Shown: one piece after another, positions 13,617-55,200 of the stretch | Numbering within the stretch: the stretch's first letter is position 1 | Layout: each line of letters opens with the position of its first letter | Source: Raillietiella orientalis | Taxonomy: Eukaryota | Length of the DNA stretch: 64,000 nt | Reading direction: 5' to 3' | NCBI GenBank assembly: GCA_036172245.1 | Contig: JAYWIR010000008.1 | Location: 3,348,001 to 3,412,000, forward strand | The notes under the pieces: generated by a model | What the model was told of the DNA's origin: nothing | The model's input: only the letters and a program-made list of their open reading frames with translations | Databases searched by the model: none | Translations under genes and position numbers: made by a program

Positions 13617-15527
13617 TTAGAACAAAGTGGTACGTGCGCCATAAAGTTTCAATTCGATGTTGCATTGCTGTGCAATAATTTTTATTTGTTGTAATTCAAA
13701 AAATGTTAAATATTCTTCATATAAGTATAAAGTTTGAATACCTTTTAAGGTATCCAATAATTTTAAAAAGTTGTGGATAACTTCTTCTTCTGTGGTTTCA
13801 TGAGAATTGTTCGAATTTAGTAGTGTGTCACTTACTAAGTGGAATACCTTGATGCCCGTGTTTGTTGGTACAAGATCTTCGGTTCTCAAAATTATACCAT
13901 CCCAGTTTTGAAGTCTACTCAGTTGTAGAGTATGTAGTTGAGAGATGTAGGTATTCATATAGGATTGCAGCGATTCTTCATGAAAGATCCCTCGAATTAA
14001 CTTCAATCCGCTTAAATTGTTGTTTTTGACAAAGTTGGTCCGTATACAGCCTTCGTTGTTGTCCATGCAATCTGCCATTTGCAAGCTTTCCAATTTTGGG
14101 TACAAAGCACTTATGTCAAATAAGTCAATATTATAAATCCTCGTTATTTTCAATTCCTTCAGATTTGGAAGTGCCAAGGGTGTATCTGCTGTTAACCATT
14201 TAGGAATTTTTGTTTGTTCATTGAATTCAACTTGAAACACTTCAATTTGATTTTCCAGATTGAAAAACATAGCATCCAGTTTGTTGTACCCATCCAAGTA
14301 TAATGACAGTTCTTTGAGGGCTTTGAAACATTTGAAATCCCTATTATGAAAATCAGATTTCTCTGAAAGTTCCATTTCCATCTTTCGGATATTCGGAAAA
14401 TACTTGTCTAGTATTTCAAAATGTTGCTGCTTGGGAGATTGTAGTTTCATAAATTCCATGTCATATTTTGGGTGCTTAAAACCTGCCTTAAATAGTTCTA
14501 TCAGTATGTCTGCAATATTGAAATCCATTTTGAACAGTTTTAATTGTGGACAGGAGTTGATAATGCTAGCTATGTCATCTAATTTTAAGCAATATTTGCA
14601 AAACTCTCCAAATTCTAGAACTTGAAGAGAATGCTGATGCTGCAGCAGGTGTACTGAATTGTTAACTTTTGGAGCAAGAATGGGTAATGCCCCAATGTAA
14701 ATTTTTCTCAGTTTGTGGCAGTTTGCCAAAACTTTCTCCAGGACAACGTCGATACCAGGTGGAAGCATTATGACTTCCTTAACTTGTTTCATTTTTTTGC
14801 ATTGTTTTTGAAATGTTTGGATCAGATATTTATCTGACAAATAAGTTTCTGGAAATTTTAATACCAATCTTACTAGGCGCTTAAAATTGTTGAGGTTTTC
14901 AATGAGTAATCTTTTCAAATCTTGAAATGAAAAATATAATCTCTCAGTAAGCAGCAAATACTCATCAGGAAGGCCACGAATATAATCATGAAACAAAACA
15001 GTGTACAGCATTGATTCTCCTTCTATAAGGTTTTCTAAATTTAAAGTTCGCAAGTTTATCGGAATGCAAGGAAGAAAAATTTGCACACTTATATCTTGAA
15101 CAGTCATGATTATACCACACATGAGCAGTAGTAGCAGTTTCCAATAGTTTGAGATGAGAAAATCTGGAATGTTGCTTACATATTGCAAAACCTTCTTTGC
15201 AGCAATTGCAGTCACTGGATCATGGAAAATTGTGTCCAACAGATTGCTGGTAGAGTGGCTTATTAGTAGCCTTTTTTTTTTCTTCCTGCTACAATTTGAA
15301 TGCCTTGGTTGCATATTAACTTGCAGAATGTACATTCTGCACCTTGTAGCCCATTTTGGAATGTACTTTTCCACCAATTTTTTTTTTTCTTGCAATCTCA
15401 CTCCAAAACACATTGGGATCTTACAGGGATTTAATGACAGACAGGATGATACCACAGTATCAACAATTTTTTCAAGGCATAAAGTTTTCAGACAGCAATT
15501 AGGATTTCCCAGAAAGATTTTTTCCAT
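13617..15527 (-). CDS. Leucine-rich-repeat protein with N-terminal BC-box-like motif (putative cullin-RING E3 substrate receptor)
   Basis: Uninterrupted ORF of over 630 codons in AT-rich DNA. The likely start is ATG at 15527 (MEKIFLGNPNCCLKTLCLEKIV). RNI/F-box-type LRR units include NCHKLRKIYI, SCPQLKLFKM, FPNIRKMEM, LPNLKELKI and YPKLESLQM. Confidence 0.75.
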   Translation of the reverse strand: MEKIFLGNPNCCLKTLCLEKIVDTVVSSCLSLNPCKIPMCFGVRLQEKKKLVEKYIPKWATRCRMYILQVNMQPRHSNCSRKKKKRLLISHSTSNLLDTIFHDPVTAIAAKKVLQYVSNIPDFLISNYWKLLLLLMCGIIMTVQDISVQIFLPCIPINLRTLNLENLIEGESMLYTVLFHDYIRGLPDEYLLLTERLYFSFQDLKRLLIENLNNFKRLVRLVLKFPETYLSDKYLIQTFQKQCKKMKQVKEVIMLPPGIDVVLEKVLANCHKLRKIYIGALPILAPKVNNSVHLLQHQHSLQVLEFGEFCKYCLKLDDIASIINSCPQLKLFKMDFNIADILIELFKAGFKHPKYDMEFMKLQSPKQQHFEILDKYFPNIRKMEMELSEKSDFHNRDFKCFKALKELSLYLDGYNKLDAMFFNLENQIEVFQVEFNEQTKIPKWLTADTPLALPNLKELKITRIYNIDLFDISALYPKLESLQMADCMDNNEGCIRTNFVKNNNLSGLKLIRGIFHEESLQSYMNTYISQLHTLQLSRLQNWDGIILRTEDLVPTNTGIKVFHLVSDTLLNSNNSHETTEEEVIHNFLKLLDTLKGIQTLYLYEEYLTFFELQQIKIIAQQCNIELKLYGARTTLF

Positions 15528-16150
15528 TAGAAACAAGAAAAACAGCAGTGAAGAATAAGTATGAAGAGAATTCAGCAGACAAACAGTTTTTACATTCAAG
15601 GTTTCCATGGTTTTATATGTGTGCATGTGTGTGTGTGTGGGTGTATGTATGTATACATACATACATATATATAGTGGGACTTAAGTGAATGCCTAGATCT
15701 GTCAGTAATCTGCTCATTTTATGGAGGTGGTGGTGATACCGTCATGAGTTTCAAGAAACAGAAAAGGGAAATATAAAAAAAAAAAAACTCACTACTTTCA
15801 AGTTGCTTTTGAAAAAATTGTCATTCTGTTGGTTGATGCTTTGGTTCTTCTGCATTTGAAACTGAATCTTTTTGTTTGTTCATTTGTATGTTACTGTCCC
15901 AAGTAGTGATTTTGTTTGTTTAACATTTTGTTTTTGTTTTTGGAGATAGCATCTTGCTAGTACATCAGATTATAAATTTGAATTTTGAAATTTTTTTTCT
16001 CTCAACTAGATTTGTAATGATCCAGTTGTTTTTTCTTTCCAGAATAATTATGACATTCTCATAGCTTCTTCTTTTAAGAGAATTCCTAAAATGTACTAAA
16101 AGCATTAATTGTGCTCAAAAGGATTCAGCTTACAGCATAGGGTAGTCAAA

Positions 16151-28130: not shown

Positions 28131-28443
28131 CTCCGGCGTACCCGGGTGACAAAGAAACTGCCGAGTCGCCGGTGCGCAGACCGACTTGACTCTCCTCGGC
28201 AGCGGAAGGGGATGGAGAAAAAACAAAAAGAAACGCTTTGGAGGGCCGGGAAGGGATCACTGACCACTGGAGGGAGGGTCCATCCTTTGCAGGATGCTGT
28301 CTGGGTCCGTTCGAATCCCACCCAGGTGGGGCTGTCTGGTCGCAATCCGCAGGAAGCGGCCTGCGAGTTCGTCGACGTCCCTTTCGCTGTTTGGTCTTCT
28401 GACTTTGCTCCCCGCAGCCACAATATCTCCTCGCAGGAGAAAT

Positions 28444-28828
28444 GAATCGAACCCTGATTCCCTGTTACCCGTTACAACTATGGTAGGCGCATACCATCGA
28501 TGGTTGATAAAGCAGACACTTGAAAGACAAAGTCGCCGGTACGAGACCGTTGCGATCAGCCCAAAGTTACTCAGAGTCACCAACAGTTTCTGGGTCCGCG
28601 AAGGGAACCCGTTGGTCCCGTTCTAATAAGAGCCCTCCATTCGCAAGGACGAAGTGTTGGAAGCATGTATTAGCTCAAGAATTGCCACAGTTATCCAAGT
28701 AGGAGTGTACGATCTAAGGAACCACAACTGATTTAATGAGCCATTCGCGGTTTAGCCTTGTTTCTGTATGGACTTAGACGTGCATGGCTTAATCTTCGAT
28801 TACGTCTACTGGCAGGATCAACCAGGTA
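28444..28828 (-). pseudogene. 18S rRNA 5'-end fragment (truncated, partly degenerate)
   Basis: The minus strand begins TACCTGGTTGATCCTGCCAGTAG at 28828. It continues with AAGATTAAGCCATGCA, AATGGCTCATTAAATCAGTT, TACTTGGATAACTGTGG and GAGCTAATACATGC, and stops abruptly after GTAACGGG...CAGGGTTCGATTC. Confidence 0.92.
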
Positions 28829-29609: not shown

Positions 29610-30075
29610 GAAGTCAACCCTCTGGGTCCCTCCAGAAATCAAGGAACCCTTAGGGGCCTCTCCAGTTGTAAAGATGAAGCCGTTCTTCCCCACGGGGGGC
29701 TACCCTCCATCTCGTACCATGGAGCTGGTGGATCCATACCTCTCCAGAGTATGAAGAAGCGCGTTGTTTTTTCTGGGGAGCGCCCTTCAGAGAGAATCTG
29801 GAAGATCCCTTCGGGATTCTCTCCAGGGGAAGGGTGGAACAGGAGCGGTTTCCTTACGGAGGATCCCTCCAAACAAATTCCACGGAAGGATCCTTTCTGG
29901 GTTCCCTCCGGAGAAGAAAAGAGGAGAGGATCCCACAATCCAGGGTTCCCTCCGGAATCTCTTCGGAAACAACCAGGATGGAGGATCCTTTTCAGGATTC
30001 CCTCCCTAGCTTAAGAGGAACGGACTCCTTCCTCTGGAGCCCTTCCTGGATTCATATGGTTCAACACCCGGGTAC
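29610..30075 (+). repeat. Dispersed repeat family, copy B
   Basis: Shares GTC..CC...GGTCC.TCCAG.AATCAAGGA, CCTCTCCAGTTGT, GGGTTCCCTCCGGAGAAGA, CTTCGGA.ACAACCAGG and GAGGAACGGACTCC..GAGCCCTTCCTG with 32234-32764. The 3' part also matches copy A. Confidence 0.75.
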
Positions 30076-30083
30076 GTCGGGGA

Positions 30084-30900
30084 GTTTATTATATAAAATG
30101 AACAAACAAAGTGTAGAGCCATAGGCCCTACAACGTCCGAAAGAGTTCGGAACCTGCCGAGTAACCGGTACGCAGGCCGACGAGGTTTGCCTCGGCAGCG
30201 GAGGGCAAGGGGGCAAACAAAACTAAAAACAAAAACAAAAAATAAGAGGGTTTGGGAAGCGATCAACCGGAAGCTGGAGGGAGTCCTCTGCATCCTTTCC
30301 AGGATGCTGACAAGTTCCATCCGAGTATGTCCCAGGTGGGACCATCTAGCTGCCGTCCTCATGGAGCTCAGGGAGAAGCAGATGGCGTCCCTACCGCGCC
30401 TTTCTCCCCTCGCGTATCTCCAGGTCGCCAGAATCCCTCGTAGGCATCAAAGGGCTGCTAGAAGTAAGGCAGGAGAAAGGACATCGCGCACGAAGAGGTG
30501 CTCCATCACGTCCCCGGGATTGTCCTTCGATGCCCAAAGGGCCGTTGCATAACGCAACCACAGGGGCCGGAGCACAACACAGTCTACAAGCAGGTGCGGG
30601 AGCTAGGATTCCCGTTCCCTGCACCTGACACAGTTGGGGTCCACAGCCCTCCGGGTCCAGTGAGAGCGGCATGAGTTGCACGGGAGACCCTCTTGCAACA
30701 GCAAAAGTGCCGACTCCTACCACTTCATGGGGAGGGCCCGATTGTTCTCTAACTCTGAGAGCCACTCGAGGTCTTCCTGTGGGATTCCCAGCAGTTCGAG
30801 AATCCGTTGGATAAAGCTCGGCAAGCAGATGCTTCGGATGCAGCCAACTCGCATGGCCGCATCCGGAAGGATGGGTTATGGGGGATTTTCTTGCTTGCTA
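30084..30900 (-). mobile_element. L1/Tx1-like non-LTR retrotransposon 3' fragment
   Basis: Minus strand ~30645-30560 reads VDPNCVRCRERES/LPHLLVDCVVLRPLW (zf-RVT, frameshifted). A T-rich 3' UTR lies at ~30215-30245 and AATAAA at ~30090. Confidence 0.7.
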
Positions 30901-31012
30901 TCTACGATCTCTTCCTCTGCACCCATCTCAAGCGTTTCGTGAGATCTCATCTTGGGCAAGCTCCATGTGATGCCTTCACACGCGTCCTGAACTGTTGCCC
31001 TTGCCAAGCCAA

Positions 31013-31433
31013 CCCATCCAGACGAACGCTCTATTTCCTGTCCCTCATTTTCCCCACGACCTTTGGAAGGTCTCCGGTTCCCCGATGCCAGTAACCCTTG
31101 CAAAGTCAGTCGATTTCCCTTGGTTCCATTTCGAGACGGTACGCGGAAGCTGAGAAGACGCGTCTTCAGCTGAGCTCCTTCCCATCTGCTCGTCCGCGTT
31201 ATTCCGTTGCTCGTGCTGCCGCCTTCTGCGCTCTCCGTTGCCCTTTTCTTTGCCGGAGCCGTCCCCATGGACACACCAACCGTCTTGGAGCCATCGACGA
31301 GTCGATTCTTTCATTCAGGGTGGTGCTTGCCATTTCTTATCGAACCCCAAGCCGAGATCGTTCTTCTTCATTCGAGCCCCATCGTAGGTTTTCCGGTTCT
31401 TATCTTTCTAATCTGCTGCTTTCACGAGAGCTC
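31013..31433 (+). repeat. ~420-bp repeat; inverted near-identical copy at 44697-45118
   Basis: ORFs 31098-31457(+) and 44703-45032(-) translate almost identically. The nucleotide match runs from ACCCATCCAGACGAACGC to GAGAGCTC with few substitutions. Confidence 0.9.
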
Positions 31434-32233
31434 ACTGAGACCTGCAAGATTTGTTAACGTCATATCCTTGGCGTCTTTCTCGCTTTTCCTATCCCCACCT
31501 TTATCGCACTCATCCTTCTCTGTAACTTCCTGCATCTTCCTTTTTAGTACCAAATGACGGATAAAGCCCGCTGCTTTTGTGCCGCATGCCGCGAAGGAAA
31601 AAGGTTCCACTTCAGAAGTTCCTCGCTCGTGGCTCGCATGCTTCGTAGGGCGAACAGTCAGCAAACGGAGCACTCAGAGAGACCTGGAATAAAACAGATG
31701 GGATGGGGGTGGTGCACTGGTCAGCCAAAGTAGCCCCAGGTCGGTTTCCCCGCTCTTTCTGCTAGCTGGAGGCTCGTGCAAGCGATGCGACCACACATTC
31801 GCAACTCGGAAGCTTTTTTTTTTTTACTGGTGGAAAAATCTGGAATCGATATTCCGAAATCTTGAAGTGTTCGCCAGGCACTTCCAGAGGGGATGGGGGG
31901 GGGGGAAACACTTTGGCACACCATCCGGGTGAAATTTTCCGACCCGGAAGCATGTGGAAATATGACTCGTGCGATCTTCCTGAAGACCTCTAGTGCAAAC
32001 CGCGGTTGCATTTTCCGATACGATGGAAGCTGGAATGAAGACGTAGCCCCTGTCGGAGGCTTTGCAGTTAAGGCTTCCACGTGTGGCACCATGCGTCGCG
32101 GGTTCGAATACTCCGGCAGAAACTGACGCCACTGCGTCGTTGGGTTCCGAGTTTCTCCTGCATCGGCGCCGGTTGGCCGAGACATTCGGGCGTAGCACCA
32201 CCTGGAGGCTCCCGATGAAAACAGGAACAATGG

Positions 32234-32764
32234 GAGTCGACCTTCGGTCCTTCCAGGAATCAAGGAGTGGGGAGTTCCCCCTCCGGCCATACAACGGAGA
32301 GCGAACCCCCCTCACCGGAAGGACCCCTCCGGTTTGTTCAAGATGGAGCAGGAGTATTCACAGGCACCTCTCCAGTTGTTTAAAGGAGCGGACCCCCCCT
32401 GTTTCGGGGGGGTCCGCTCCTTTAAAGTAGCCGCCTCTCCAGAAAAGTGCAAGGAAGCAAGCGAGAGCGATCCCCCTGCGGGAAGCTGCAACGCCCCTTC
32501 TGAATTTCGGAAGCGTCCTTTAGGGGTTTTCTTCAGAGGAGTGAACAGGAGCGGTTCCCTTGCGGGTTCCCTCCGGAGAAGATGAAATGGAGAAGACCAT
32601 CCCCCTCTTCCAGGGGGTGTCCCTCCGGAGAGAATGAGGAAGGAGATTCCTTTCTGGGTTCCCCTTCGGAGACAACCAGGGTGGGAGGTACGATCCCCCC
32701 CGCCCCCCGGGTGGATCCCTCCCCAAGCGTGAGAGGAACGGACTCCGAGCCCTTCCTGCGGACT
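32234..32764 (+). repeat. Dispersed repeat family, copy C (left part, interrupted by the viral insertion)
   Basis: Colinear with copy B up to GAGGAACGGACTCCGAGCCCTTCCTG, then switches to viral sequence at 32765. Confidence 0.7.
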
Positions 32765-33038
32765 CAAGGACCTTGTCACAACTTCGACGACCTCCATTCA
32801 GCAGATGCCATCTTGACCACGCCAAAGGATCAGCAAGCTCCAACCTGCCATACTGCTCCAAACAAGGTGAAACATCCCTGGGCTTTCGGAGCACTCGACG
32901 ACCACAATCCTGCCGAAGAGAACTACGAAAAGAAGGTATACTTTTTCCCACAAACAGTATCATTGCTTTTTAGATGCTCCAACTCATCCCATCAGACCAC
33001 ACCGAAAAGTACATCTTGGAAAACCACACCAAATTTTA
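32765..33038 (+). pseudogene. rep: Inverted partial duplicate of viral rep (motif III region plus a segment missing from the main copy)
   Basis: 32765-32929 is the reverse complement of 33852-34016 with 1 mismatch in 165 bp. 33023-33038 matches 33835-33850. Confidence 0.9.
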
Positions 33039-33377
33039 GGAGTGAAGGGAATAAGATGGTACACTAGGTCGCTAGTGAGAGTGCAGGAGAGTGTACATGG
33101 AGGTTATGATGGCAGATCCAAGAAGTGTCCTTGGTTCGATAGTGGATCTGATGGCGGATTAGATGTGGAAATGAATTGTAACATATGGAATGGAAAGATG
33201 TATGTGATAAAGCACATGTCCGGACAGGATATTCCAGACGATTTCAAGGAAGGAGGGCAGCAGCGCGCGTTTCCTGATGAGGGAACGTTGAAAGCAGGAA
33301 TGCCTGCTTATCACATGTCGGAGAAATATTATTTTATGTTCCAAGGAGCTAGAGATAAAACAGTGTATGTTCAATAA
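33039..33377 (+). pseudogene. Putative CRESS virus capsid protein, C-terminal part
   Basis: Open frame convergent on rep, ending ...YHMSEKYYFMFQGARDKTVYVQ*. This resembles the YYxxF C-terminal strand of circovirus-like capsids. The stop overlaps AATAAA. The call rests mainly on genome position. Confidence 0.6.
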
Positions 33378-33420
33378 ATTGGTTTATTATCGGGAAGCAT
33401 CGGCGGTGCCAACATAGTTA

Positions 33421-34188
33421 TTATCGGTTTGGAGGGTTGGTTTGATGAATGGAAGTATGTATCCACGGTGTCTTTTTCCTGTTTGAATGGGTGTCGAGGT
33501 CGATGACGATCCATCTGTCGTATAATAGTTTGGCGAATTCAGGTTCCCAGTTTGCCAGGACGATGACGTGAGGTGTGTCATCATACTTGATGGACCCTGG
33601 ATATTTTGGGTCGAACAAAATTCCATTTTTCAAGGACTCGATGAAGCCATATTGGACGAGTTCTTTTGCATCCCTGGTGAAATCGACGGCGATCGTTGGT
33701 TCTCCGTTGTATAGATGAGCTGCATCTGCCTTTTTGCAGCTCTGCATGTAGATTGCCTTTCTTCGAAGGAAGAGAAACTTGGCCAAGGTGGTTTACTAAT
33801 TATTATCTTTGATAAAGTTGATATTTTTTTTGAATAAAATTTGGTGTGGTCTTCGTAGTTCTCTTGGGCAGGATTGTGGTCGTCGAGTGCTCCGAAAGCC
33901 CAGGGATGTTTCACCTTGTTTGGAGCAGTATGGCAGGTTGGAGCTTGCTGATCCTTTGGCGTGGTCAAGATGGCATCTGCTGAATGGAGGTCGTCGAAGT
34001 TGTGACAAGGTCCTTGGTTCATGAGTTTGGATGTAACCTTGAATGTGAGGGGTTCCACTTTCTCCCTGTCCTTTTGCAAGGATCGCCAAGGAGCGGTGTA
34101 GTCTGCTCCATTTCTTGAGCAAGTCGAGTTCTCCATCCGTGTAACTGTTTAGGGTGATGCACCAATCCGTGTAAGATGCGCACGGCAT
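33421..34188 (-). pseudogene. rep: CRESS virus replication-associated protein (Rep), frameshifted and internally deleted
   Basis: RCR motif I WCITLN, motif II GTPHIQG and motif III YCSK, with PWAFG after a frameshift. SF3 helicase remnants: broken Walker A (..TTLAK), Walker B region IAVDFTR, YGFIESLKNG, motif C PHVIVLAN and Arg finger DRW. Confidence 0.95.
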
Positions 34189-34241
34189 TTTAGTAAGACT
34201 ACGAAACGCGTGGTGGGAAGAAAAGGCTTATGTACCGGGAA

Positions 34242-34284
34242 AGTGCGCAGTTAGGCGATTCCAGTATTGCCCGAACTGCGCACT
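34242..34284 (+). promoter_or_regulatory. Viral rolling-circle origin stem-loop with variant nonanucleotide CAGTATTGC
   Basis: Perfect 11-bp arms AGTGCGCAGTT (34242-34252) and AACTGCGCACT (34274-34284) enclose CAGTATTGC (34262-34270), one base from the NANTATTAC consensus. It lies about 54 bp upstream of the rep ATG. Confidence 0.85.
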
Positions 34285-34403
34285 GTCAGCGTTTCATGGG
34301 AATTCCGTAATGGTTACAGTAAATGTGTCTGTCTATTTTTTTTTTTTTTTTTGTCTAGTTTGCTTCTGTGAGGGTTTTTGCGTGAAGGACTGGGTGTGAG
34401 CGC

Positions 34404-34491
34404 TAGGAATTCCTCCCTGGATTCGTAGGGAGGATCCCTCCCGGGGTACCCCCTACCTTGAAGAGTTGCCCACCCTCGCGTGGCGTGGAAC
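34404..34491 (+). repeat. Dispersed repeat family, copy C (right part)
   Basis: CCTCCCTGGATTCGTAGGGAGG...CCCCTACCTTGAAGAGTT...GTGGCGTGGA matches the 3' end of copy A (~1470-1566). Confidence 0.7.
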
Positions 34492-37315
34492 CGTAGCGCA
34501 CACGCAGATGCGCACGGCATCACCTCTGTGCGCGTACAGCTACGCAAATGCACGTGTACATGTGATCCGAAATTCCATGTACACGTGGACACTCGGAAGG
34601 GAAGCAGGGTGTCATCGCTTTTCAGCTCTTTGGCCACCGAGGAAAATGTCCCTTTGCTCAGGATCAAGCCGCGATCGAGTCACTTGAGCACCGGTTAACC
34701 AAGGATTATTCCTAAGTTTCGGCCTTTTCCAAAGCACCGCGTTTCATAGAACTAGGTGTCTATATATACTCTCGGGAAGCTGGAGACATGCAAGGCTTAA
34801 AAATAAGCACTTGGAGTGAAGCAGCGTCCCGGATATACAGGAAAACCCGTGTAGTCATGGAGGTAAATCCCTAATGTGTTTATTAGCTTGGCATTCATGG
34901 CGGTGAATCAGGATTGGTTGTTAACTACTAATCGGGGTTGTTTTGAGCGTGTTTGTTGTTCTCATTCATTGCAACGAATTGTTTGGTGTGTTGTTGCACA
35001 CTTTTTTTTACAAAAAAAAGAGAGAGAGAGAGAGAGAGAGGAAGAAAGAAACGCTCCTGCGAATCTTCATTTGGAGGACCTTCTCACTTCTTCTTGCTTT
35101 CATTTTCTTCTCTTGTGTCGTGTTTCGTGACTTCGATGGTCCCTCGTCCCTCGTAAAGACATAAACCGTGCGAAGCCCTTGAAAAAAAATCAGGCCAAAG
35201 AGAAGCGCGAGCATCCGTTCGTCACCAAGGCGTACCGTTGCGAGCCTCCGCTTCCCCGAGCAGCAGCTGTAGCACTTTTCGCCCAAGCCGGAAGTTCCCG
35301 AAAATCGATCGAAAAGACCTACGGCAACCTCAGCTGCCACTGAACTCACTCAGATACCGACCCGTGGTTCTTGGGCAGTGGAGGGCAGATCCGTGGCGCC
35401 GTGCGTTCGTGTGTGTCCACTTCTGCTCTTGCAAGAAAACGACGGTTCCTCGCCACGAAGCCGAGAGGATGTTGTGACTCCCCCCTCAAGCTGGAACGCT
35501 GAAGGGCTTCAAAAGCCTTATCGGTCACCCACGCAGATCCCTGAAGTGTTGATGGCTGCAAAGCTAAGCGGGATCTTTAAGCTCCAACTTCTACATTTTC
35601 TACTCAAGGGACCATGTTTATTGTCTCTGTTCTTTGTTAAAGTTCTGTTAATCAAGAGAAGACATCGTCTAGTGGTCAACCACACGGAAAACCTCGCTTT
35701 TGTTTTAGCTGGGGCTGGGGACGGTCTTCCTGAACTGTTGTATGCTCTCTTTTTGGTATTGATTTTCAATGACTTAGCTGTCAACCAAGGTGTGGGGCTA
35801 TTCGGAAAAGAAACACAACGGCGGCATGTCCCTGTAAAGCACCTGCTTTTCGTCTTCATGCAGCACATGAAAATGTAGAAACCACAGAAGCAGGCGTCTC
35901 AACACGTGTAACTTCCCCGGTTCGAAGAACGCAAGCTGCCCTCTGCCGTTGGACTCGACAGCTGTGACCTGGCTTCAACCACCTGGCTCACCTTCGTATC
36001 GATGTGCATAAAGGGTTCTGAGCTCAACCGTGGCAAAGTTAACGAGTCCCCATTTACTGACTCATGTCCAGGTCTTCTTAGCAAGAAATAATGATGGGAC
36101 CAATGGTGCGTACATGTATCCCACATTCATTCGATTATCTCAAACCAAAGAAAATATTGTGTCATTTCATGCACAGAGACTTCCTCTAAATACAGGGTCA
36201 CTGACAGCCTGGAGTCGAGCTATAAACACTATAAGCAATGGGACGATCCTCGGATCACTAAGGCTGGCCAACCACTACGGCAGTACCATGTTGGGCCTGC
36301 AAGAAGGTCAGGTCTCTGCAAGCGATCAGTTTTTTAATAGAATGTGGTTCGAGCATTTAGTAATGTGACTGAGGCAGCTGTAGGGTCAATGATTCTCAAT
36401 AGCCGGAAGGCCACAATGCACAGGTTTTCCCGACACGCCATAAAAGAACTGATGGAGACCAGGTCATGTTTAAAAGGGCCTATGTACCATCCTTTTATCC
36501 TTCTGTTTCTACGTATAGGGCTTTATCCTGCAAGCTTATACACTTGTTGTCATCGACTTGTGATAGGAAATGAGAAAATGTGTTGCTTGCCGTGTGATGG
36601 TAGCTATCAAGCTCCATCTACTAAAAAGAACCTTTTCGGTGTTATGCGTAGTCCGTTCTCATGGATGCCTGATCACTTCAGTTTCCTGGTAACAAATTTG
36701 ATTTTGGGAATTTGAATCATTTCCTCCTTAAACTCCAAATCTTTGTTCACTCCCTCTTTATTCATTTCTTTTGGGGTCTTAAGGCTCCATCGCAAAGACC
36801 CATCTACTGAACGTAGTAACGAGCTCCGTTAAGAATTAAAATCCGTTACAGTAAAAGCTACCGTGCAGGCAGTTTCCATGCCAGGCCCGTGCATCTTTGG
36901 CAACCTGGCCAATGTCGTGGGTCCTTGCACTTGGATGCTGATCAGCATCCGCTGCCGACCCCATCAATGCAATTTCATCTGCTTGGATCCGGTCGCGTAC
37001 CAACGTGATCGTGGGGGTGGAAAAATAAGTTGAAATCACTTGCCACAAACGATGTTCATCGTCCCTATCACGCCGATCTCCCGGGGCACGCTTATCTGGT
37101 GACATTTGCATGTCGATTCGAGCCCCTTCGTTTAACTTTCTATGTGTGTGTGTCTTAGGGGGCAGAAAGCTACTGATAGTTAACGAGTTCAGGATTATTG
37201 CATTCCTTTCAGAGTAATGTATTAGCAATTATATTAAATTTAAAAAACGGGAAGGCACTTAAAGAGCTGCCATTCATCTTGAAAATCTGTAGTAGTAAAC
37301 AATGATTTTTTGCAG

Positions 37316-38404
37316 ACAAATCCTTTTCAAGGGAAACAGAATGCAGATGAACCACTCCCAGTGGATGTGAACCTTTCACTGCCTACAATTTGCTTAACAT
37401 GCCCTATTTGCTTGTGCCTCTACAATTTGGAAGAACGTGCTCCTGTTTACTGGATTACTGCCAATCCAAAGTGCTATCATACATACTGCATTCTCTGTGT
37501 AACCACATGGATCTCTACTACAAAATATCAGTGTCCCTTGTGCACAGTAGAAGATTCAGAATCTCCTGACGTTAACCTGGCCTCCATCCAGTACAATTCT
37601 GTGCTTATGATGATTCTAAAACAAGTCAGCGGCAATCAAATTACGCTGGTGGATCGGGAAGAATTGAAAAACAAATTTGAAACAGTTCAGAAAGTACTTG
37701 CTGAGTTAAAAAGAGAAAGAAATCATGACAGGCTTGAGGACAGGCCTGAACAAAGGATACCGCCTCAAACTGAAGGCAAAATTCAATCCATATTTCCATC
37801 GGATCAATGTGATTCGTCAGCAAAGGATCAATTTTCTGATGAGTATCCTATAGCAAGAATCCTCACACTTAGACCAAAACAGCGGAATCCCAAATTTTTT
37901 ATGTGGTTTGCCAACAAAAACAAATCCTTTGGTCGCATCATCTTGGAAACGCGTCCAGATTTAGCTCCCAAAATGGCGAAAAATTTCAATACTTTCTGTA
38001 GCAGTCTCGAACCCAGCTTCTGTTACAGGAATTCCCACATTTTCCAAGTATGCCCAGGTGAAATGATCCGTGGTGGTGATGTGCAACTTAATTCAGGACA
38101 AGGTGGCTATTCAATTTATGATCGGAAAAAGTTCCCTGCAGATGAATCTCCTTTAGAACCTCGAGCAGGTGCTGTTGTCATGGCTAGATGGGCAACTGAT
38201 GCAAAAACAAAACTAGATTTAGTAGGATCACAGTTCCTAATACGACTAAATGTGTGTGGCAGTGATCGTGGGCGTATATTAGGTTATGTGATATCAGGTT
38301 TAGAGGTTGTAGATGCTATCAGCCATATGGGTGGCTCCTCCAAAGTTGGACCTCCTCTCAGCACAGTCTTTGTTTCTGACTGTGGTAGGTATGATGAAAA
38401 ATAA
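37316..38404 (+). CDS. RING-HC, coiled coil, cyclophilin-like fusion protein (terminal exon; start probably in an upstream exon)
   Basis: C3HC4 RING: CPIC...KCYHTYCILC...CPLC. Heptad-rich REELKNKFETVQKVLAELKRE. Cyclophilin signatures FGRIILE..PDLAPKMAKNF, GGD...GQGGYSIY, GSQFLI, G.VISGLEVVDAI and VFVSDCG. A TTTTTTGCAG acceptor ends at 37315. Confidence 0.88.
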   Translation, partial: TNPFQGKQNADEPLPVDVNLSLPTICLTCPICLCLYNLEERAPVYWITANPKCYHTYCILCVTTWISTTKYQCPLCTVEDSESPDVNLASIQYNSVLMMILKQVSGNQITLVDREELKNKFETVQKVLAELKRERNHDRLEDRPEQRIPPQTEGKIQSIFPSDQCDSSAKDQFSDEYPIARILTLRPKQRNPKFFMWFANKNKSFGRIILETRPDLAPKMAKNFNTFCSSLEPSFCYRNSHIFQVCPGEMIRGGDVQLNSGQGGYSIYDRKKFPADESPLEPRAGAVVMARWATDAKTKLDLVGSQFLIRLNVCGSDRGRILGYVISGLEVVDAISHMGGSSKVGPPLSTVFVSDCGRYDEK

Positions 38405-38435: not shown

Positions 38436-39294
38436 TCACTGTATCTCAAGAGTAGTCTCCCCTTTCTCTGTGTGTAATTTGACCAAGCTTCCTGAAGCTG
38501 GCCTATCATCATTCAAGCTCCATTTATAGAAAAGACTGGAAATATGATATTCAGTTTCTGAACCTGTTACACAAAAATTGCACCATCTAACCTGGCCAAG
38601 AATGTCAAAGGAGTCCACTTTGATGTATCTGCTTTTGGCATCCACTTTCGGTTCATAGGTGTATCCAAAACTGCAGGTAGCACAGCCACTGCTGTACTGT
38701 TTGATGGCATTCCAGATTTAGGTGCACCAAGGGATTTGACAAGGTGATGCACGGCCGCCTTCACCATCCCATAACCAATCATACTAGGAGTAGCTTCACA
38801 GGCAGCTGCAGCCCCACATAAAACCAACAACCCTCCATCTTTTAAGTGTTTTGCTGCCACATTGGCTGCAATTGTAGAGCTCCAAAGACTCTGTCTAATA
38901 ACAGTATCAGTGTTTTTAATAAAATCTAATTGGGGATTCATATTTTTCATTCATGGCTATTCCAAACCTTCAGATGCTATATTGCCTCCTGCCCATCCTC
39001 CTGCCATACATAAGATAGTATCCAATTGATTGCCCTCTAAAACATTTTTCAATTCATCATGGATCTGCTCTGACTGCTTTATGAAATCACGAGAAAAATC
39101 TACTATTATATCTGTATCAGCACCAACTGATGTACTGGAATCTACGGATCCAACCCACTAGGAACAGAAATGTCCTTCATTGTTAGACGTATGCATCATT
39201 TTTTTTTTACCCAGCTTTTATCTTTAAAACATTTCACACAAGCAGATCCGAGGGCGCCCTTGCCGCCAAAAACCAAAACTCGCTGCTTGCTCAT
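38436..39294 (-). CDS. QDPR: Dihydropteridine reductase (4 exons)
   Basis: [50 protein letters not shown] (YxxxK), [11 protein letters not shown] and RPASGSL, separated by three short GT-AG introns (e.g. 38926-38967). Confidence 0.95.
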
Positions 39295-49200: not shown

Positions 49201-52200
49201 TTGTAGCTGTAGACTTGTTCCTCTTAAACATGAAACTATTGTAAACGTGAAGCAAGCCACATGTTCCTCCTCCTTGGTTCTTATATATACTCTTAACATT
49301 TAATGACAATCATTTTTAATAATTTCCAATATTTATGGAATTTAAAAACAATAGTAAATTTGATTCTAAGTTATGCATAAGTTATGCTGATAGATCCACT
49401 ATTAGCAATTAATTATATTACAGCATCAGCATGGTGTGAAGTTGAGAAAATCTAAATATTTGATGCACATATACATTGACTCCAAAGATAAAGAACAGAG
49501 ATTTATCTATGCTCAAAAGAAAAATCATTTGTTTTGTGCTTGCTTGTTCAGATTGTTTGTTCAGTAGTCTTGTAAATCTAAGCTAGTTTTTTTTGAAACA
49601 AGAAACCTGCAAATTAGTTCGCTGATTTCTAGGATAACAAACTTGGATAGAATTATGAATCTATTTGGTGCTCTTAATTAAGTTTCATATTCTGCATAAA
49701 GTTCTGCAGTTCAACCTTTGAAATTTACATAGTGTTCTTAGCCAAGTCAGAAGTACAAATTGAAATGTTGCAACAAAAATTACATGAGATTGGGAATCAA
49801 GGAATTCATGTGGATTTTTTCAATCCCGAAAATGAGATGCTAGTTTAAAAATGGATGTACATTTATGAAGGTGTGATTGTAACACATTCAGTGATACATG
49901 AAATGGGTTGTAGTTTTTGAAGAAAAAAAAAAATGGCATATTTAGATGATAGGTTTGTTTAGATGTTGAATGAAGTAGTTTCAGAATAATGAGCATAATT
50001 TTGGTATGAAAACAAAGAACGTTGTAAGCGTTTTCAATGATTATTAAATTTTATAAAATGAAGAGTTAAAGAGATTCCATTTTATTATGTTTTCCATTAT
50101 ATGAGTTCCACTGACTTGGTCGTATTTAAAATTAGCTATAAAAGTTCAAAATAATTTGTATTAGAATGAGAAATACCCTAAACAACCATCTAAGTTTCAG
50201 TTTTACCTCATTTTTTATTCATGTTAAGGTCTTGTATTTCAAATACGTTAAGAAATGTGGATGGTATATGGTCAATTGCAATTTTCTTTTTGCAGAATGG
50301 TGTTTTGGATATAGAGTTAACAATCCTAGTAAGAAGGGCATATTTCCAAAAAGTTTTGTGTGTCTTCGGACTGCAACTATATATAACCAGGGGCAAGTTC
50401 ATTGTTTGCAACTGTAAGTGATAATCTGTTTTTATTCAATTTTAGAGTGCTGAAATTATGTGATCATAACATTCCTATCATTGTTCAAGAAATCAATATT
50501 GTTTTACATGAATGGGCCCGTATTTGGAAAGAGATGTATGTGGTGGGTACTGATATGTGCATTAAAACATAAAAGAAATGCTTATTAAAAGGCCCATCAC
50601 CCATTATTTGAGAGAGTTAAGGTGATGCTTCATGAATTGCTGCAACATCGAAGTAAGCTTCTGTCTGATGGTTTGACAGCTGATGAAATGCGTCAATATT
50701 CTTCAAAAATTGCTCATCGCATTGATCGTGGAAATGAGTAATTTATTAGTTTTTCTAATTCGATTTCTTTCTTTTTTTTTTTTTCTTTTCTTTTCTACAC
50801 AGTATGCTTGGTCTGGACATGGTGGTGCGTAATGATGAAGGAGAAATTGTGGATTCAAGTCAGATTTCTACCATCGAATTGTTTCGTCGTCATGAGATTG
50901 CAGCAAAAAAATTGAAAATTGTATGACTTACAGATTCACACAAATTTGTATTGCTGAACTTTCCAGTCTACACATACTCTTCAAACAAATAGTTCCTTCA
51001 TTCAAAGCAGTTTATGTTTGTATCTACATTGTCAACGATTAAAATGTCCAGTTCATTGTGATCTTGAACTGATCTTTTGTTTGTATGATGTAGCTCGTGG
51101 AGAGGCCATAACAGAAAATTTCGTTATTCCTGTTGCGCAGAATGATGTCGATGTGACAGAACTCTCTTCTCGAGTTATATATACGGTAATATTGTATGAT
51201 CTTATAAAGAATTGCAATTTTTCCTCTCCAGGATTTGAGTTATACAACTTTTAAAAAGCAACAGTTAGCTTTGGTGTGTTACATTGTTTGGTTAGGATCC
51301 ATGCATTTAAAAGAAACTACAACAAGAAAATCAGGATCCCTGCACAAAAAAACGAAATTAGAACAGCTCAAACGACCCTTGGGAGTTGCATCACTGGACA
51401 TCAGCAGTCTCGATGCCCCCAAAATGCAACCATTTGATAATGAAGAGCATTTCATGCCCATGCTTCTGTATGTGGGATTTCATTTTCGACTTGTAAATGT
51501 GTTCATAGATGTGGAGACAAAGATTTTTTGGATACCACTTTAAGGAAGCTGTTGTCAAGCAAGGATATTGGGAAAAAGGATACTTGTCTGAGGAATGGAG
51601 TGTTTATCAATTTAAGGATGCTAGTAGGAGATGTAAATCGTGTGCGAATGGAAAACCCTCACATCATCAACTCAAATGTGGCTGTAGCCCGAAGAATTGG
51701 TTCTCCTGATACTATAATGCCAGGGGATGTTCGTAATGATCTTTATATCACTCTCATGACAGGCGATTTTCCCAAAGGTAACAAAACCTCAGATAAGAGT
51801 GTGCAAGTGGTTGTCAGTGTTTTAGATAACAAAGGAAATATCCTACCTGTAAGTGTAGTTAATGCAATTGATTTAATTAACTTATATTCATGCTAGAATG
51901 CTGTTGGTCTTGGTTCTGGACAGGAAATGGGATCCAAGTACGTATCAACTGTGTATTACCACGAAGATAAACCAAAATGGCATGAAACTATAAAAGTGAA
52001 CATTCCGATTGAAAAATTTGCATCAAGTCATATTCGTTTTACCCTCTGGCACAGGTAGGGAGCATGTGCTTTTATTCTAGTTATACTATTTTACTGGTTA
52101 GGTCATCTCATGAAAATAAGTTTAAACATGACAAGCCATTTGCTGTTGGATACATTCAGTTGATGATGACAGATGGTACTACCATTCACAATGGAACACA

Positions 52201-55200
52201 TGAATTACTGTTGTATAAGGTGAACTACTAATCTAGAGTAAGCAGCATTTTTCAGTTTGTATAGATAGATCCAAAACTTTTTCAAGAAAATGAAGTGTCG
52301 TATCTGAATCTTCCATTCAGCAAAGAGGATAAGAAAAACTCAAGTAATCATATAGAAATGCCTCTCAGTTCAAAGGAATCTCTTATTCTTACAACCAACA
52401 CTTGCTCTACAAAGCTGACACAAAATTGTAAGTAGGCATGTGTGCTTGCCTTGCTGCAATACTTGTGCGTTAAGTGAACCTGCTTTTATTATTGCGTTGG
52501 TGGAATAATCCAGAAAATCTCAAAGAAATTCTTGATGGGTTGATGAAAGTAGAAGGTGATGAGATAGTAAAGTTTCTCCAGGATATTTTGGATGCTCTTT
52601 TCAATATTCTCATGGAAAATAACAATGAAGATTGGTATGATAATCTTGTTTTTGAAGCTTTGGTATGTTTCCAAAAAATGTTAGGCTAATCTTTAATACT
52701 GTATTTTAAAAGTTGTATGTCATTGGTCTTCTTGAGAATCCAAAATATCAGCACTTCAGAGATGTCCTGGATCTTTATATTAAAGAAAGCTTCAGTGCGA
52801 CATTAATTTACCCGTAAGTATGAAAACATTGGTGTTCTGTTACTTAAGCACTTTACTAGTAAATTACTGCACGTATTGACTACACATGCACAGAAAGCCT
52901 TGACCAGTGAACGTCAACGCATTCTGTTAGCAGCCTTTCCCTGTCTAAAATATGTTCTTCGAATTATTTTGCGCTCACAACAACTTTTCATGAAGTAGGT
53001 TTGCAATACGGGAAAAATTCACTGCAGATGAATTCTTTTGTAGTCTAAATGAAAACATTGATCAGTCACATTTCCAAACTGCATTTCAACGTTTGCTGCA
53101 AAGTTTAACTCAGTTAACCTCTTATCTAGATGAATCTATGATTCCTATCCAAGTCAGTTGCTTACATCATCTGCCCACTTGCATTTCTGAATGTCAAGAA
53201 GTATTGGATAATGTGACTATCAGCAACTTTTTTTGTGATATGTTGCGCAGCCTTCCAGTCAAACGACTGCTAGTTGAAAGAATAAATACGATCCGAACGC
53301 TGATACACAGCACGCTATTTTTAAGAGCTGAGAGTCGAATGGTTTTGCTTCCTGTGTTTTGTGATGCCATACAACTACTACTTGAAGAACCACAAGAGGT
53401 GAGTATAGCAAGCTTTTGTGCATGGTGCATGCAGTTAATAGATAGTAGCTATTGAATTGTACTTTAAACAAGAAGTTAGTTAGGTTTTGGGGAATAATGC
53501 AGCATGGATATGTTGTTAGATAACCAGAGAAAAGACTTGGTGAAATTCGATTCTGTATTTCAGTTGCAGTTGTGTATTGACTGCTTCTCTGATCTTCTGG
53601 ATTTCTTGTTTGATCAGAGATTGCGGACCTACTTTGATGTAGAAGTCGTTATGTTAACTTTACTGCACAGAGTTACCAAAACAATAATAAAAATGAGCAA
53701 CTCACAGCCTTTCCTTCCTCATTTAGTTACAACTCTCATTGCTATTTTTCGACTAATGACGTCGCAACATTATAGCCAGTTTGTAAAGATGCTGTCCATG
53801 AACCGTGATTTCGATGCCGTGAAGGAATTTCTCATAGAATCCATGGCTATTTTTAAAGATTTGTGGAGTTGCTCAGTGTACCCCAGCAACTGGTCCGAAA
53901 TGATTCTGGTTCAGAATCGGATTCTTTTGGAGGCATTAAAACAATTCAAAGAGACAGTACAGAGTAGCTTCTCTAACCCATTTTGTGTGCAAATCTGGAG
54001 CAATTTTTTTCATTGCATCATTGCCTTTTTGACACAACCGGCATTGCAGCTGGAATCTATGTCTCTGATTAAAAAAAATCAAGTGTTGGCTACATATGGT
54101 GATATGCGTTTAATTGCTGGACGAGAGATCAAACATGCCTGGCTTAACCTAAGGAAAAATAAAAGTCACTTCATTCCTTCACTGATAGAACCGTTTCTTG
54201 AAATGACAATGATACCTCAAAAAGAACTGCGATGTGAAACCCTTCCAATTTTTTTTGACATGATGCAGTTTCAGATAACTACCCCCCATGATACTGCTCA
54301 TTTCCCAGAAGCCCAACCATCCCTGACATATTCAACGGTGCCCTTTGAGCAGTTTTCCCATGAATTGATGTCCAAGCTGGATGTTTTGATCGGTGGTGGA
54401 AGAGGGGATGAAGAGTACAGAGTGCAATTCGAAGAAACATTGAAAAAGCTGTGTAGAGATCATCGCACGCTGTACCTTCAAGGATATCAGTTTGTGTCCA
54501 TAGCTGTGCAACAAATGCAACTGCTGCTTGAACTCCGTACAGCGATCCGGGAAGAATGCGAGGAAGACGAAATTACTTGTCTAGTCAACATGGCTCAGTT
54601 CTATCGTCGTTATGAAAAATCCGATCTATATGTGCGTTATCTCGATCGTATTAGTGACATAAATGCCAAAAAGGATTATTTCGTGGAAGCAGCGTTAGCC
54701 TTGCACGATCACGCACATCTGCTCAGTTGGTCCAAAGATCCCATACAGAAAGAGGGACTTTGCTATAGAATCATTGATTTTTTCGATAAAGGTTGCATGT
54801 GGGCCGAGACACTGCACGTGTGCAATGACTTGGTGAAATACTATGAAAGTGAAACTTTGGAGTATGATAAGTTGGGAGCGTTGTATCAGCGGATGAGTGT
54901 CTTTTGCAAGAAGATGGCCGAGAATCAAAGCCAAGACCCAGAGTACTTTCGAGTTGCATTTTACGGGACAGGATTCCCTCGTTTTTTGCAGAACAAGGTT
55001 AGAGAGATTCCGACAGGGACGATGCGTATAATGGTGTTTAGGTGTTTGTCTATCGAGGGCGCCAACACGAAATGCTGTCTGATTTCCGAAACCGGCTGAG
55101 CGAACAGTATCCGAACGCAACTCTTCTAACGAAATTGGCGATCCCTTCCCAGCAAGAAATGGAGGGGCCGAGCCAGCGTAAGCATCGACAGTCTGCATCC

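Follow-up and report, generated by a model that had tools for sequence, protein, structure and literature searches.

The window, that is, the whole stretch of 64,000 nucleotides that was analysed, contains an endogenous CRESS-DNA virus element, and the reading preferred here is that it is probably a recent and dead insertion, present in one copy, of rearranged viral DNA, lying in a part of a eukaryotic chromosome that is rich in repeats and free of genes. That a virus of this kind had become endogenous here was the core of the original prediction, and it is confirmed by a Rep nuclease, a helicase remnant, an origin hairpin, a pair of polyA signals and the insertion of the whole into a host repeat. 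The coordinates of these features are collected in Table 1.

Table 1. Features of the virus-derived insert, with coordinates in the window.
Feature	Position	Strand	Description
Virus-derived insert, whole	32756..34417	.	About 1.66 kb, within a multi-copy GC-rich host repeat
Left arm	32765..32926	+	Rep sense, Rep residues ~58-111 including motif III; inverted relative to the main rep
Left-only segment	32927..33018	+	92 nt; GAAAA at each end (32924-32928, 33019-33023)
Second short arm	33019..33038	+	20 nt, 1 mismatch, pairs with 33854-33835; 33038 is the last position of the left rep copy
Cap-like ORF remnant	33039..33377	+	112 open codons plus stop; converges on rep; capsid identity putative
Back-to-back polyA signals	33373..33388	.	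AATAAA (+) at 33373-33378, overlapping the stop of the Cap-like ORF; AATAAA (-) at 33388-33383, 33 nt after the rep stop
Rep SF3-helicase remnant	33421..33792	-	123 open codons; begins just past the Walker A position and includes Walker B, motif C, the C-terminus and the stop
Two adjacent in-frame stops	33793..33798	-	At the relatives' Walker A loop; tblastn alignment NN-stop-stop-TTLAKF versus ...GKTTFAKY (P0007)
Rep N-terminal ORF	33799..34188	-	130 codons from ATG 34188; HUH nuclease motifs I-III, then ~35 codons without homology
Right arm	33835..34016	-	33855-34016 plus 33835-33854; belongs to the main rep copy
Origin hairpin	34242..34284	+	11-bp stem 34242-34252 / 34274-34284, 21-nt loop carrying CAGTATTGC; rep lies on the other strand
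Viral intergenic region, remainder	34285..34417	.	T17 run 34336-34352; inside the insert boundaries

The viral identity of the insert is clearest in the N-terminal part of Rep. A profile and protein search of Rep, suggested by the original prediction as a check, was run, and it assigned this ORF to Pfam Viral_Rep (PF02407, E 1.3e-10, 41.9 bits against a cut-off of 26) and gave 3337 protein relatives at E<=0.001 in an exhaustive search of 1.84 billion representatives, the best of them with 47% identity. Among 616 IMG/VR relatives the closest nuclease is 45% identical, and against a Rep profile built from 25 full-length relatives the nuclease scores E 7.9e-33. In addition, there are eight PDB sequence matches, the best being the nuclease domain of PCV2 Rep (2hw0, E 1.8e-9). 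Motifs I (CITLN), II (PHIQGY) and III (YCSK) fall on columns that are invariant in 27 sequences, and the invariant residues T12, N14, H48, Q50, Y87, C88 and K90 are all kept, while three of 11 nearly invariant nuclease positions deviate from the family consensus (N15S, G38A and E40G). A word-indexed protein search with the nuclease piece gave no match among 65 candidates, and the one 17-residue match (L001) in a single-protein scan of IMG/VR was judged irrelevant.

The helicase part of Rep is a remnant. Its positions 33792-33424 align with profile positions 187-289 (E 1.4e-26) and have tblastn matches to the 25 relatives, with a best identity of 51% over 100 residues (P0242); no PDB sequence match was found for it. 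Walker A and profile positions 102-186 have no counterpart in Rep, and the nuclease and helicase parts share one reading frame in which two adjacent stops separate them. The predicted breakage of Rep is correct as far as deletions are concerned, the central part being missing and the two stops being present, but frameshifts are not demonstrable, both parts being in the same frame. Damage of this kind to the helicase is what a degraded copy would show, as opposed to an intact gene.

The predicted origin stem-loop is found next to rep, whose ATG lies 53 nt downstream of the hairpin. Its 11-bp stem gives a DNA fold with z = -3.49, and equally good folds arose in 1 of 200 shuffles. The motif CAGTATTGC alone is not significant in the window (six found, 1.9 expected), and the origin is assigned from the context of the motif, which lies in a stem beside rep and matches the arrangement in L008, the closest complete relative. 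The paired polyA signals, likewise predicted, are read directly in the sequence; both hexamers sit between the arms of the inverted repeat described below, each so oriented that a transcript would terminate once it had passed the first arm. PolyA hexamers are in general weak predictors.

The gene converging on rep is probably the capsid gene, judging by its position, which agrees with that of Cap in L008, and by its openness, a frame of this kind staying open in only 1 of 20000 shuffles. The original prediction had recognized a Cap C-terminus here, and this was not confirmed, for six different tests gave no detectable homologue. The ORF had no homologue in Pfam, in the word-indexed protein search (0 of 15 candidates) or in Atlas, its best E value against 16 profiles made from 228 non-Rep ORFs was 15, and the AF2 model built without an alignment reached a pLDDT of 46. 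Two tblastx HSPs among 80 viral loci (L029 and L078, 23 bits, E 6.6e-5) were rejected: both cross a subject stop codon, the one to L078 falls inside the rep region of L078, and their E-values are attributed to sum statistics over the Rep HSPs that these loci also contain. A reading of this plus-strand ORF as a second, inverted helicase was also rejected, the colinear tblastn matches being weak (E 0.057-3.8, seven queries) and the profile values being E 140 for the helicase and E 240 for full Rep.

The element is integrated in host chromosomal DNA. This follows from the eukaryotic genes on the same contig (DOCK, RING-cyclophilin and SDR), from the SSU rRNA fragments likewise present on it and from empty paralogous sites, the insert being absent from two ~75%-identical paralogues of the flank within the window (1341-1566 and 29806-30059). 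In Atlas, the DOCK exon lies nearest to clusters in which Chordata, Arthropoda, Streptophyta and Bacillariophyta are the most frequent taxa, an indecisive placement that lends the arthropod framing of the original prediction no support. Furthermore, sequencing-run contigs that stem from the flanking repeat at its other locations pass directly from 32755 to 34418, from 32757 to 34428 and from 32758 to 34439, skipping 1662-1680 nt; the joints in these contigs have short sides of 25-30 nt, so the boundaries of the insert are approximate. The run-contig observations come from 8 of 133 pieces. Two 151-nt contigs (33242-33392 and 33376-33526, 100% identical) show the interior of the insert to be low-copy with a depth of 2, equal to that of a unique flank contig (30863-31013), while bin depths in the flanking repeat reach 17-33. 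The bins 32808-33041 and 33978-34211 have a run-contig depth of 0, so that the arms and the host-virus junctions are uncovered and the contigs are uninformative there either way; the structure of the insert rests on the assembly. The neighbourhood from ~19 to 36 kb is repeat-rich and holds no Pfam domain above the curated cut-off (104 of 106 scanned ORFs without a match, two with weak sub-threshold ones). A candidate target-site duplication, CCTTCCTG (32748-32755) and CCTCCCTG (34412-34419), agrees at 7 of 8 positions and was set aside as weak, because the repeat is rich in CCCTCC.

A near-identical inverted piece of rep around motif III had been predicted and is present. A repeat search found arms at 32765-32962 and 33819-34016 (198 nt, 92%), and in a gapped local alignment the core arms, 32765-32926 and 34016-33855, agree over 162 nt with one mismatch (32915/33866) and lie 928 nt apart. 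The left-arm ORF (p_32638_32970) matches Rep profile positions 60-103 with E 1.1e-8, and when the element was compared with the whole window by blastn the inverted copy was recovered with E 4.5e-81 and no third copy of the rep piece was found. With the second short arm included, the arms differ by two substitutions in 182 nt and by the 92-nt indel, and these substitutions and the GAAAA-flanked indel argue that the arms are two real copies and not one copy assembled twice. The 92-nt left-only segment is plausibly ancestral rep lost from the main copy, which is too short by comparison, and the microhomology at GAAAA points the same way; the Rep profile gave no significant match to the segment and hence no signal of such an origin. 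A possible intron in the segment (GTATAC...TTTTTAG, 39 nt) was rejected, since its excision leaves the two rep copies unreconciled.

The original prediction had contrasted near-identical arms with an otherwise broken Rep, and this contrast disappears on closer analysis, for the damage is structural and the frames elsewhere are stop-free. The three viral frames are free of stops over 365 codons, and the probability of this is 0.73 at the per-arm divergence (d=0.55%), falling to 0.056 if neutral substitution reaches 5% and to 0.003 if it reaches 10%. As so long a stop-free stretch is improbable at 5-10% neutral substitution, the whole insert is young, and given this youth two differences in 182 nt are the neutral expectation and call for no selection.

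Under the preferred reading, the DNA captured by the host would have been joined fragments or a defective rearranged molecule, not one clean genome. One fragment would run from the origin hairpin through rep into the converging gene, probably that of the capsid, of which it would hold the 3' part, and a second would consist of inverted rep (from Rep residue ~58 onward, ~274 nt) that replaces the 5' part of the capsid gene and abuts the host flank. The inverted repeat would thus be a by-product of capture, the near-identity of the arms would come from a shared viral source and little time for divergence, and the insert would probably be without function, the formation of dsRNA requiring read-through of two polyA signals. 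A single capture is simpler than a later targeted duplication, because the homology of the left arm begins within ~10 nt of the host junction and no host DNA intervenes between the viral pieces. The open nuclease ORF with all its catalytic residues and the position of the arms over motif III would also fit a maintained element.

Rearrangement might instead have followed integration, a simple insert having been altered by host replication or repair (a fold-back or template-switch inverted duplication), possibly with gene conversion and with no function. Inverted duplications with microhomology are common products of repair, and the GAAAA on both sides of the 92-nt indel points to at least one later event of the microhomology type in one copy. 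However, the duplicate would have had to land precisely at the host-virus junction, replacing the 5' part of the converging gene and bringing in no host DNA, and no lesion common to both arms, by which the copy could be dated to a time after decay, was found, the profile aligning through both in one frame. This course of events is therefore considered unlikely.

A further reading is that of a functional hairpin-RNA locus, in which a putative read-through transcript would form a 162-bp rep duplex that Dicer or a PIWI pathway would turn into small RNAs silencing related viruses, a heritable antiviral memory. As was predicted, any transcript that included both arms would by construction give such a duplex, and structure prediction for 32745-34036 (MFE -630.8 kcal/mol) does pair the arms. 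The arms span motif III of an essential viral gene, the neighbourhood is repeat-rich and devoid of protein domains, as described above, and each half of the idea has a precedent in a published study (PMC10317233, PMC7493932). Against this, youth accounts for the identity of the arms, the loop is long (928 nt) and contains both polyA signals, and no known exogenous virus is close enough to be a target, the best amino-acid identities being 47% (nuclease) and 51% (helicase). No near-perfect complementary target was found among the 1.84 billion representatives and the 616 IMG/VR relatives, and the sole complement known is the element's own rep. A functional hairpin locus is accordingly rather improbable, and the fuller version, in which a germline-fixed insert was captured or reshaped into a rep-specific hairpin yielding siRNAs that shield the host from a circulating virus, is a degree more doubtful still. 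Inverted-repeat transgenes serve to engineer virus resistance, and the locus, if it worked in this way, would be their natural equivalent and the first known hpRNA born from a virus and not from a host gene; a non-exhaustive full-text search of the literature found no description of a CRESS EVE in hairpin geometry. The geometry is important only if it is expressed.

An artefact of assembly, in which two rep pieces from different loci or molecules were mis-joined in the contig, is very unlikely. The flanks are multi-copy repeats, the run contigs leave the arms and both host-virus junctions uncovered, and an exact-like repeat of 162 nt is able to mislead a short-read assembler. Nevertheless, beyond the 162-nt arm the inverted rep goes on through 92 nt + 20 nt of unique sequence and then into the Cap-like ORF, so that a mis-join inside the arm would not abolish the inverted geometry. 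Moreover, the substitutions and the indel between the arms indicate distinct genomic copies, the structure is not the spacer-less palindrome typical of chimeric reads, and 33242-33526 is confirmed by the two contigs of 100% identity. Finally, an expressed truncated Rep, a putative 130-codon nuclease and origin-binding protein without helicase that would be driven from the viral upstream region and interfere with the replication of related viruses, is hardly credible: no stop interrupts the ORF between ATG 34188 and 33799, it carries the three catalytic motifs, the viral upstream region survives together with the origin, and geminivirus work has given examples of dominant-negative truncated Reps, but youth by itself predicts the openness and three of the 11 nearly invariant positions are altered.

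Endogenous CRESS-DNA virus elements in the genomes of eukaryotes were reportedly described by Liu et al. in 2011. Whole naryavirus-, nenyavirus- and vilyavirus-like genomes are integrated in Entamoeba and Giardia according to Kinsella et al. 2020 (PMC7493932), which also describes AGO2-2-bound small RNAs that map to the Entamoeba CRESS EVEs and already raises the idea that host small RNAs on such EVEs could act against exogenous virus. The insert resembles these elements in being Rep-bearing sequence of a circular ssDNA virus in a chromosome and in being partly degraded, and it differs from them in its unassigned Rep lineage (at most 47-51% identity to anything searched), in being a single rearranged copy and in its inverted rep fragment.

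The closest complete relative, L008 (IMGVR_UViG_3300001680_001350, 2250 nt), belongs to the uncultivated CRESS genomes of ~2.0-2.5 kb in IMG/VR, and its named relatives include Dragonfly larvae associated circular virus-10 and the Rep of Rakkovirus canuewis. In both the insert and L008 the origin hairpin immediately precedes rep and has its nonanucleotide on the other strand, a circovirus-like nuclease is combined with a helicase whose C-terminus reads '...DRW.I.D', and the second gene converges on rep, with a palindromic polyA pair between Rep and Cap (1407-1422 in L008). However, their identity is only 45% in the nuclease and 35% in the helicase, some 50 or more codons from the middle of Rep are missing from the insert, as is the second gene's 5' part, and the loop motif is CAGTATTGC in the insert and TAGTATTAC in L008. 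In PCV2 Rep (PDB 2hw0) the HUH domain aligns over query residues 7-93 (E 1.8e-9), a distant match at the level of sequence only, with the helicase part having no PDB counterpart.

As for hairpin RNAs, those of Drosophila simulans come into being when their targets undergo inverted duplication (Vedanayagam et al. 2023, PMC10317233). As in those loci, a piece of the would-be target is duplicated in inverted orientation in the insert, and the arms are of roughly the same size, ~200 bp, with the near-perfect complementarity that young Drosophila loci show. The insert differs from the Drosophila hpRNAs, which are recognized by a demarcated primary transcript and by siRNAs that depend on Dcr-2, in that its target would be a virus and not a selfish gene of the host and in that its long loop carries two polyA signals. 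The insert is also comparable with the arthropod EVEs that give piRNAs (ter Horst et al., bioRxiv 10.1101/396382), being a non-retroviral viral insert in repeat-rich DNA and a possible template for small RNAs, although the production of piRNAs requires no inverted repeat. If the arms gave rise to small RNAs, EVE-derived immunity and the de novo birth of hpRNAs, so far separate fields, would be joined. Even without this, the insert stands as a clean fossil, apparently recent, of a CRESS-DNA virus lineage for which very large sequence collections offer nothing more than ~50% identical. Its origin hairpin and Rep nuclease are preserved, and it connects the lineage with a eukaryotic host, which makes it useful for assigning a host and for dating.

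The element in the Raillietiella orientalis window derives from an endogenous CRESS-DNA virus, as the original prediction held, and this identity is supported by the Pfam family PF02407, Rep profile hits, the arrangement of origin and rep, and insertion in host DNA. The first ~95 residues of the ORF starting at ATG 34188 match Viral_Rep (PF02407) with E 1.3e-10 (41.9 bits, cut-off 26). In an exhaustive HMMER search, 3337 of 1.84 billion representative proteins were related to the nuclease at E<=0.001, 103 of them at <=1e-10; top identities were 45-47%, and the best ten Rep clusters, none of which bears a name, all lie on contigs of 1.3-3.4 kb. Eight PDB sequences match the nuclease, the top one, at E 1.8e-9, being 2hw0, the Rep nuclease domain of PCV2. 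Aligned with 26 hits, the window Rep has all invariant residues of motifs I (CITLN), II (PHIQGY) and III (YCSK); of 11 positions that are nearly invariant, 3 deviate from the consensus. A Rep profile built from 25 full-length relatives and scored on 1564 stop-to-stop window ORFs, each of at least 25 residues, gave exactly three hits (nuclease ORF, helicase remnant and left-arm ORF), rank 4 having E 3.9. Profiles of alternative or antisense frames overlapping rep in IMG/VR genomes weakly match 33633-34148 (-), 33800-34021 (+) and 32523-32969 (-) (E 5e-4, 3e-3 and 9e-3, respectively), and we read these matches as a side effect of conserved rep DNA and not as a sign of extra genes.

Features of the insert and of the surrounding window
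Feature	Position	Strand	Remarks
Inverted rep fragment	32765-33038	+	from Rep residue ~58 on; 274 nt with the 92-nt extra piece
Left-arm ORF	32638-32970	+	Rep profile E 1.1e-8, positions 60-103
Breakpoint	33038/33039		inverted rep fragment, then cap-like 3' part
Cap-like ORF	33039-33374	+	112 open codons
PolyA signal AATAAA	33373-33378	+	overlaps stop of + ORF
PolyA signal AATAAA	33388-33383	-	33 nt beyond rep stop
Helicase remnant	33424-33792	-	Rep profile E 1.4e-26, positions 187-289
Nuclease ORF	33799-34227	-	Rep profile E 7.9e-33, positions 4-101
Rep nuclease ORF, start	ATG at 34188	-	Pfam, HMMER, profile and PDB matches
Origin hairpin	34242-34252 / 34274-34284	+	11-bp stem; 21-nt loop with CAGTATTGC
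Intergenic remainder	133 nt after origin hairpin		T17 run at 34336-34352
RING-cyclophilin ORF	37283-38404		
SDR fragment	38570-38950		
DOCK-family gene	51208-55928	+	few long exons: DOCK_N, C2, TPR_DOCK, DHR-2 lobes A-C
Partial SSU rRNA	605-1040	+	Rfam RF01960, 113.8 bits, model 39-471 of 1831
Partial SSU rRNA	28442-28779	-	Rfam RF01960, 149.5 bits, model 57-388 of 1831

The origin hairpin sits 53 nt upstream of the rep ATG, and its DNA fold (z = -3.49) is equalled by 1 of 200 shuffles. The octamer AGTATTRC occurs six times in the window against 1.9 expected, a count reached by 2 of 100 shuffles and not significant alone; its weight in the origin call comes from its position. The closest complete IMG/VR relative, L008 (IMGVR_UViG_3300001680_001350, 2250 nt; nuclease identity 45%, helicase identity 35%), also has its origin stem, with the motif TAGTATTAC, opposite the rep strand and just upstream of the rep start. 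Its Rep converges with a 244-residue arginine-rich Cap and a palindromic AATAAA/TTTATT pair lies between them, which is the plan of the insert, where both AATAAA signals are placed between converging reading frames. Because of this shared plan, the plus-strand ORF stands where the Cap C-terminus is expected, and chance would rarely leave so long a frame open (1 of 20000 shuffles). Origin, Rep and paired polyA signals were thus rightly recognized from the start, but of the claimed Cap C-terminus only the position fits, every homology test having failed: the ORF has no match in Pfam, in a word-indexed protein search or in the ESM Atlas, a tblastx comparison with 80 viral loci produced nothing beyond two HSPs of 23 bits, both crossing subject stops, and the best of 16 profiles from 228 non-Rep ORFs of viral loci had E 15. 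Its AlphaFold2 model made without alignment has a pLDDT of 46, and we infer the name Cap from position. Weak colinear tblastn matches (E 0.057-3.8) had hinted at a second, inverted helicase in this ORF, which would give a tail-to-tail rep dimer, but the idea is rejected, as the profiles score the ORF at E 140 and 240.

Rep had been described as broken by frameshifts and deletions. No frameshift is demonstrable: the nuclease and helicase parts share one frame. Between them stand two neighbouring stop codons (33798-33793), at the site of the Walker A loop in relatives. The deletion stands: the main copy lacks roughly 50 or more central codons, because profile positions 102-186 have no counterpart there and the matched parts are just 96 nt apart.

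The inverted repeat is real, and its first description (165 bp, one mismatch, about 920 bp apart) was accurate. A repeat search gave arms of 198 nt (32765-32962 / 33819-34016) with 92% complementarity. In a gapped local alignment the core pairing is 162 nt (32765-32926 with 34016-33855) with a single mismatch (32915/33866) and a spacing of 928 nt; a 92-nt segment (32927-33018) occurs in the left copy only, and a second match of 20 nt with one mismatch follows (33019-33038 with 33854-33835). With the element as blastn query, the arms match each other at E 4.5e-81 and no third copy was found in the whole 64-kb window. The 92-nt difference would fit loss from the main copy by a microhomology deletion, because that copy is too short and GAAAA stands on both sides of the segment in the left one; the segment gave no signal against the Rep profile.

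Eukaryotic genes in the window (DOCK, RING-cyclophilin, SDR) have long exons and very short introns. Consecutive open frames of the DOCK gene are only about 45-115 nt apart (53452->53498, 55099->55215), and therefore the host genome is one with very short introns. An open frame of 687 codons at 13620-15680 (-), in DNA of 33-36% GC, has no Pfam match, gives by eye the impression of leucine-rich-repeat-like periodicity and is probably a host gene. Between about 19 and 36 kb, 104 of 106 scanned ORFs have no Pfam match and the other two are weak and sub-threshold, none reaching a curated cut-off. On both sides of the insert the adjoining DNA (32106-32807, 34446-34679) is multi-copy and divergent; its bins reach depths of up to 33 in X1, a low-depth set of contigs, apparently from DNA, and the only public sequencing run found. 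X1 contigs of other flank-repeat copies join 32755->34418, 32757->34428 and 32758->34439, skipping 1662-1680 nt, and 151-nt contigs, 100% identical and of depth 2, cover 33242-33392 and 33376-33526 in the element and 30863-31013 in the flank. In addition, the flank paralogues in the window (1341-1566 and 29806-30059, ~75% identical) are both without the insert. Consequently, the insert spans about 32756-34417 and is low-copy. An 8-bp target duplication (7/8 matching) is too weak to count.

The flanking repeat (32100-32760, 34418-34680) is composed of short GC-rich sub-units with recurrent ...CCCTCCGGAGA..., its ORFs have no Pfam domain, and its X1 contigs sum to a depth of 17-33 per bin, where unique sequence has about 2. 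The multi-copy left flank contains at 32379-32426 a perfect palindromic hairpin of 21 bp (TTTAAAGGAGCGGACCCCCCC, a 6-nt loop and the complement), and a (GA)n microsatellite lies at 35019-35042, some 600 nt past the insert on its downstream side. The mapping of X1 passed over both this microsatellite and the T17 run because they are repeats. Each SSU rRNA piece is within about 0.3-1.3 kb of one of the two paralogues, and the repeat DNA around the insert may be rDNA-derived or spacer-like.

The nuclease ORF (130 codons), helicase remnant (123) and cap-like ORF (112) are stop-free over 365 codons. The 2 differences in 182 nt correspond to a divergence of 0.55% per site for each arm. Calculated from the number of stop-creating single changes, neutral substitution at that level would leave all three frames open with a probability of 0.73; the values for 5% and 10% are 0.056 and 0.003. 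The insert as a whole is young, so the identity of the arms needs neither selection nor gene conversion. The contrast once drawn between near-identical arms and an otherwise broken Rep thus dissolves, the damage being structural and not accumulated point changes.

The inverted rep fragment starts no more than about 10 nt from the host junction, and after the breakpoint come the cap-like 3' part, the polyA pair, the helicase remnant, the nuclease (rep minus strand) and the origin hairpin; the second gene is without its 5' part, and the inverted piece fills that place. We consider it reasonably probable that this is a non-functional, young, rearranged viral insert, the inverted piece of which was made at capture: fragments or a defective molecule would have been taken up, and host end-joining would have linked them. 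A single event is preferred to a later inverted duplication on the host side, which we regard as unlikely, because there is only viral DNA between the host flanks and the inverted piece lies exactly at the junction.

Slightly less likely still is a functional small-RNA hairpin, whose main argument, arm identity, is undercut by the youth of the insert. Any RNA over 32765-34016 is predicted to fold with the arms paired, which bears out the rep duplex expected of a read-through transcript, and the predicted fold of 32745-34036 (MFE -630.8 kcal/mol) is a direct consequence of the repeat. The loop, however, contains both polyA hexamers: a plus-strand transcript would meet AATAAA at 33373 past the first arm, and a minus-strand (rep) transcript at 33388 ahead of the left arm. 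Both of these single-arm transcripts would carry rep in the sense orientation and could not pair with one another, so a duplex would require read-through.

An assembly artefact is distinctly improbable. X1 may be the assembly's own sample and, among its contigs listed, none lies over either arm or a host-virus junction, so the arrangement rests on the assembly; but the inverted rep runs on into unique sequence that joins directly to the loop, a mis-join inside an arm would keep the geometry, and the arms differ by substitutions and an indel. Expression of a truncated Rep, ending at the adjacent stops, is scarcely credible.

CRESS EVEs (endogenous viral elements) as a class are already well documented, and for those of Entamoeba AGO2-2-bound small RNAs and a possible antiviral role are discussed in PMC7493932; a full-text literature search found no description of one in hairpin geometry. 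Hairpin RNA loci, as presented in PMC10317233, are born by inverted duplication of a target fragment; what defines them is a primary transcript together with siRNAs that depend on Dicer-2. Arthropod EVEs often yield piRNAs (bioRxiv 10.1101/396382), an output for which an inverted repeat is not required. Relatives of the L008 Rep lie on contigs of 17-825 kb (P0180, P0193, P0198, P0199, P0203, P0207, P0210-P0212 and P0236), and two carry the source names Mytilus edulis (mussel) and Lamellibrachia satsuma (tubeworm). These long contigs and names suggest that the L008-type Rep lineage has been endogenised independently and repeatedly in (marine) invertebrate genomes.
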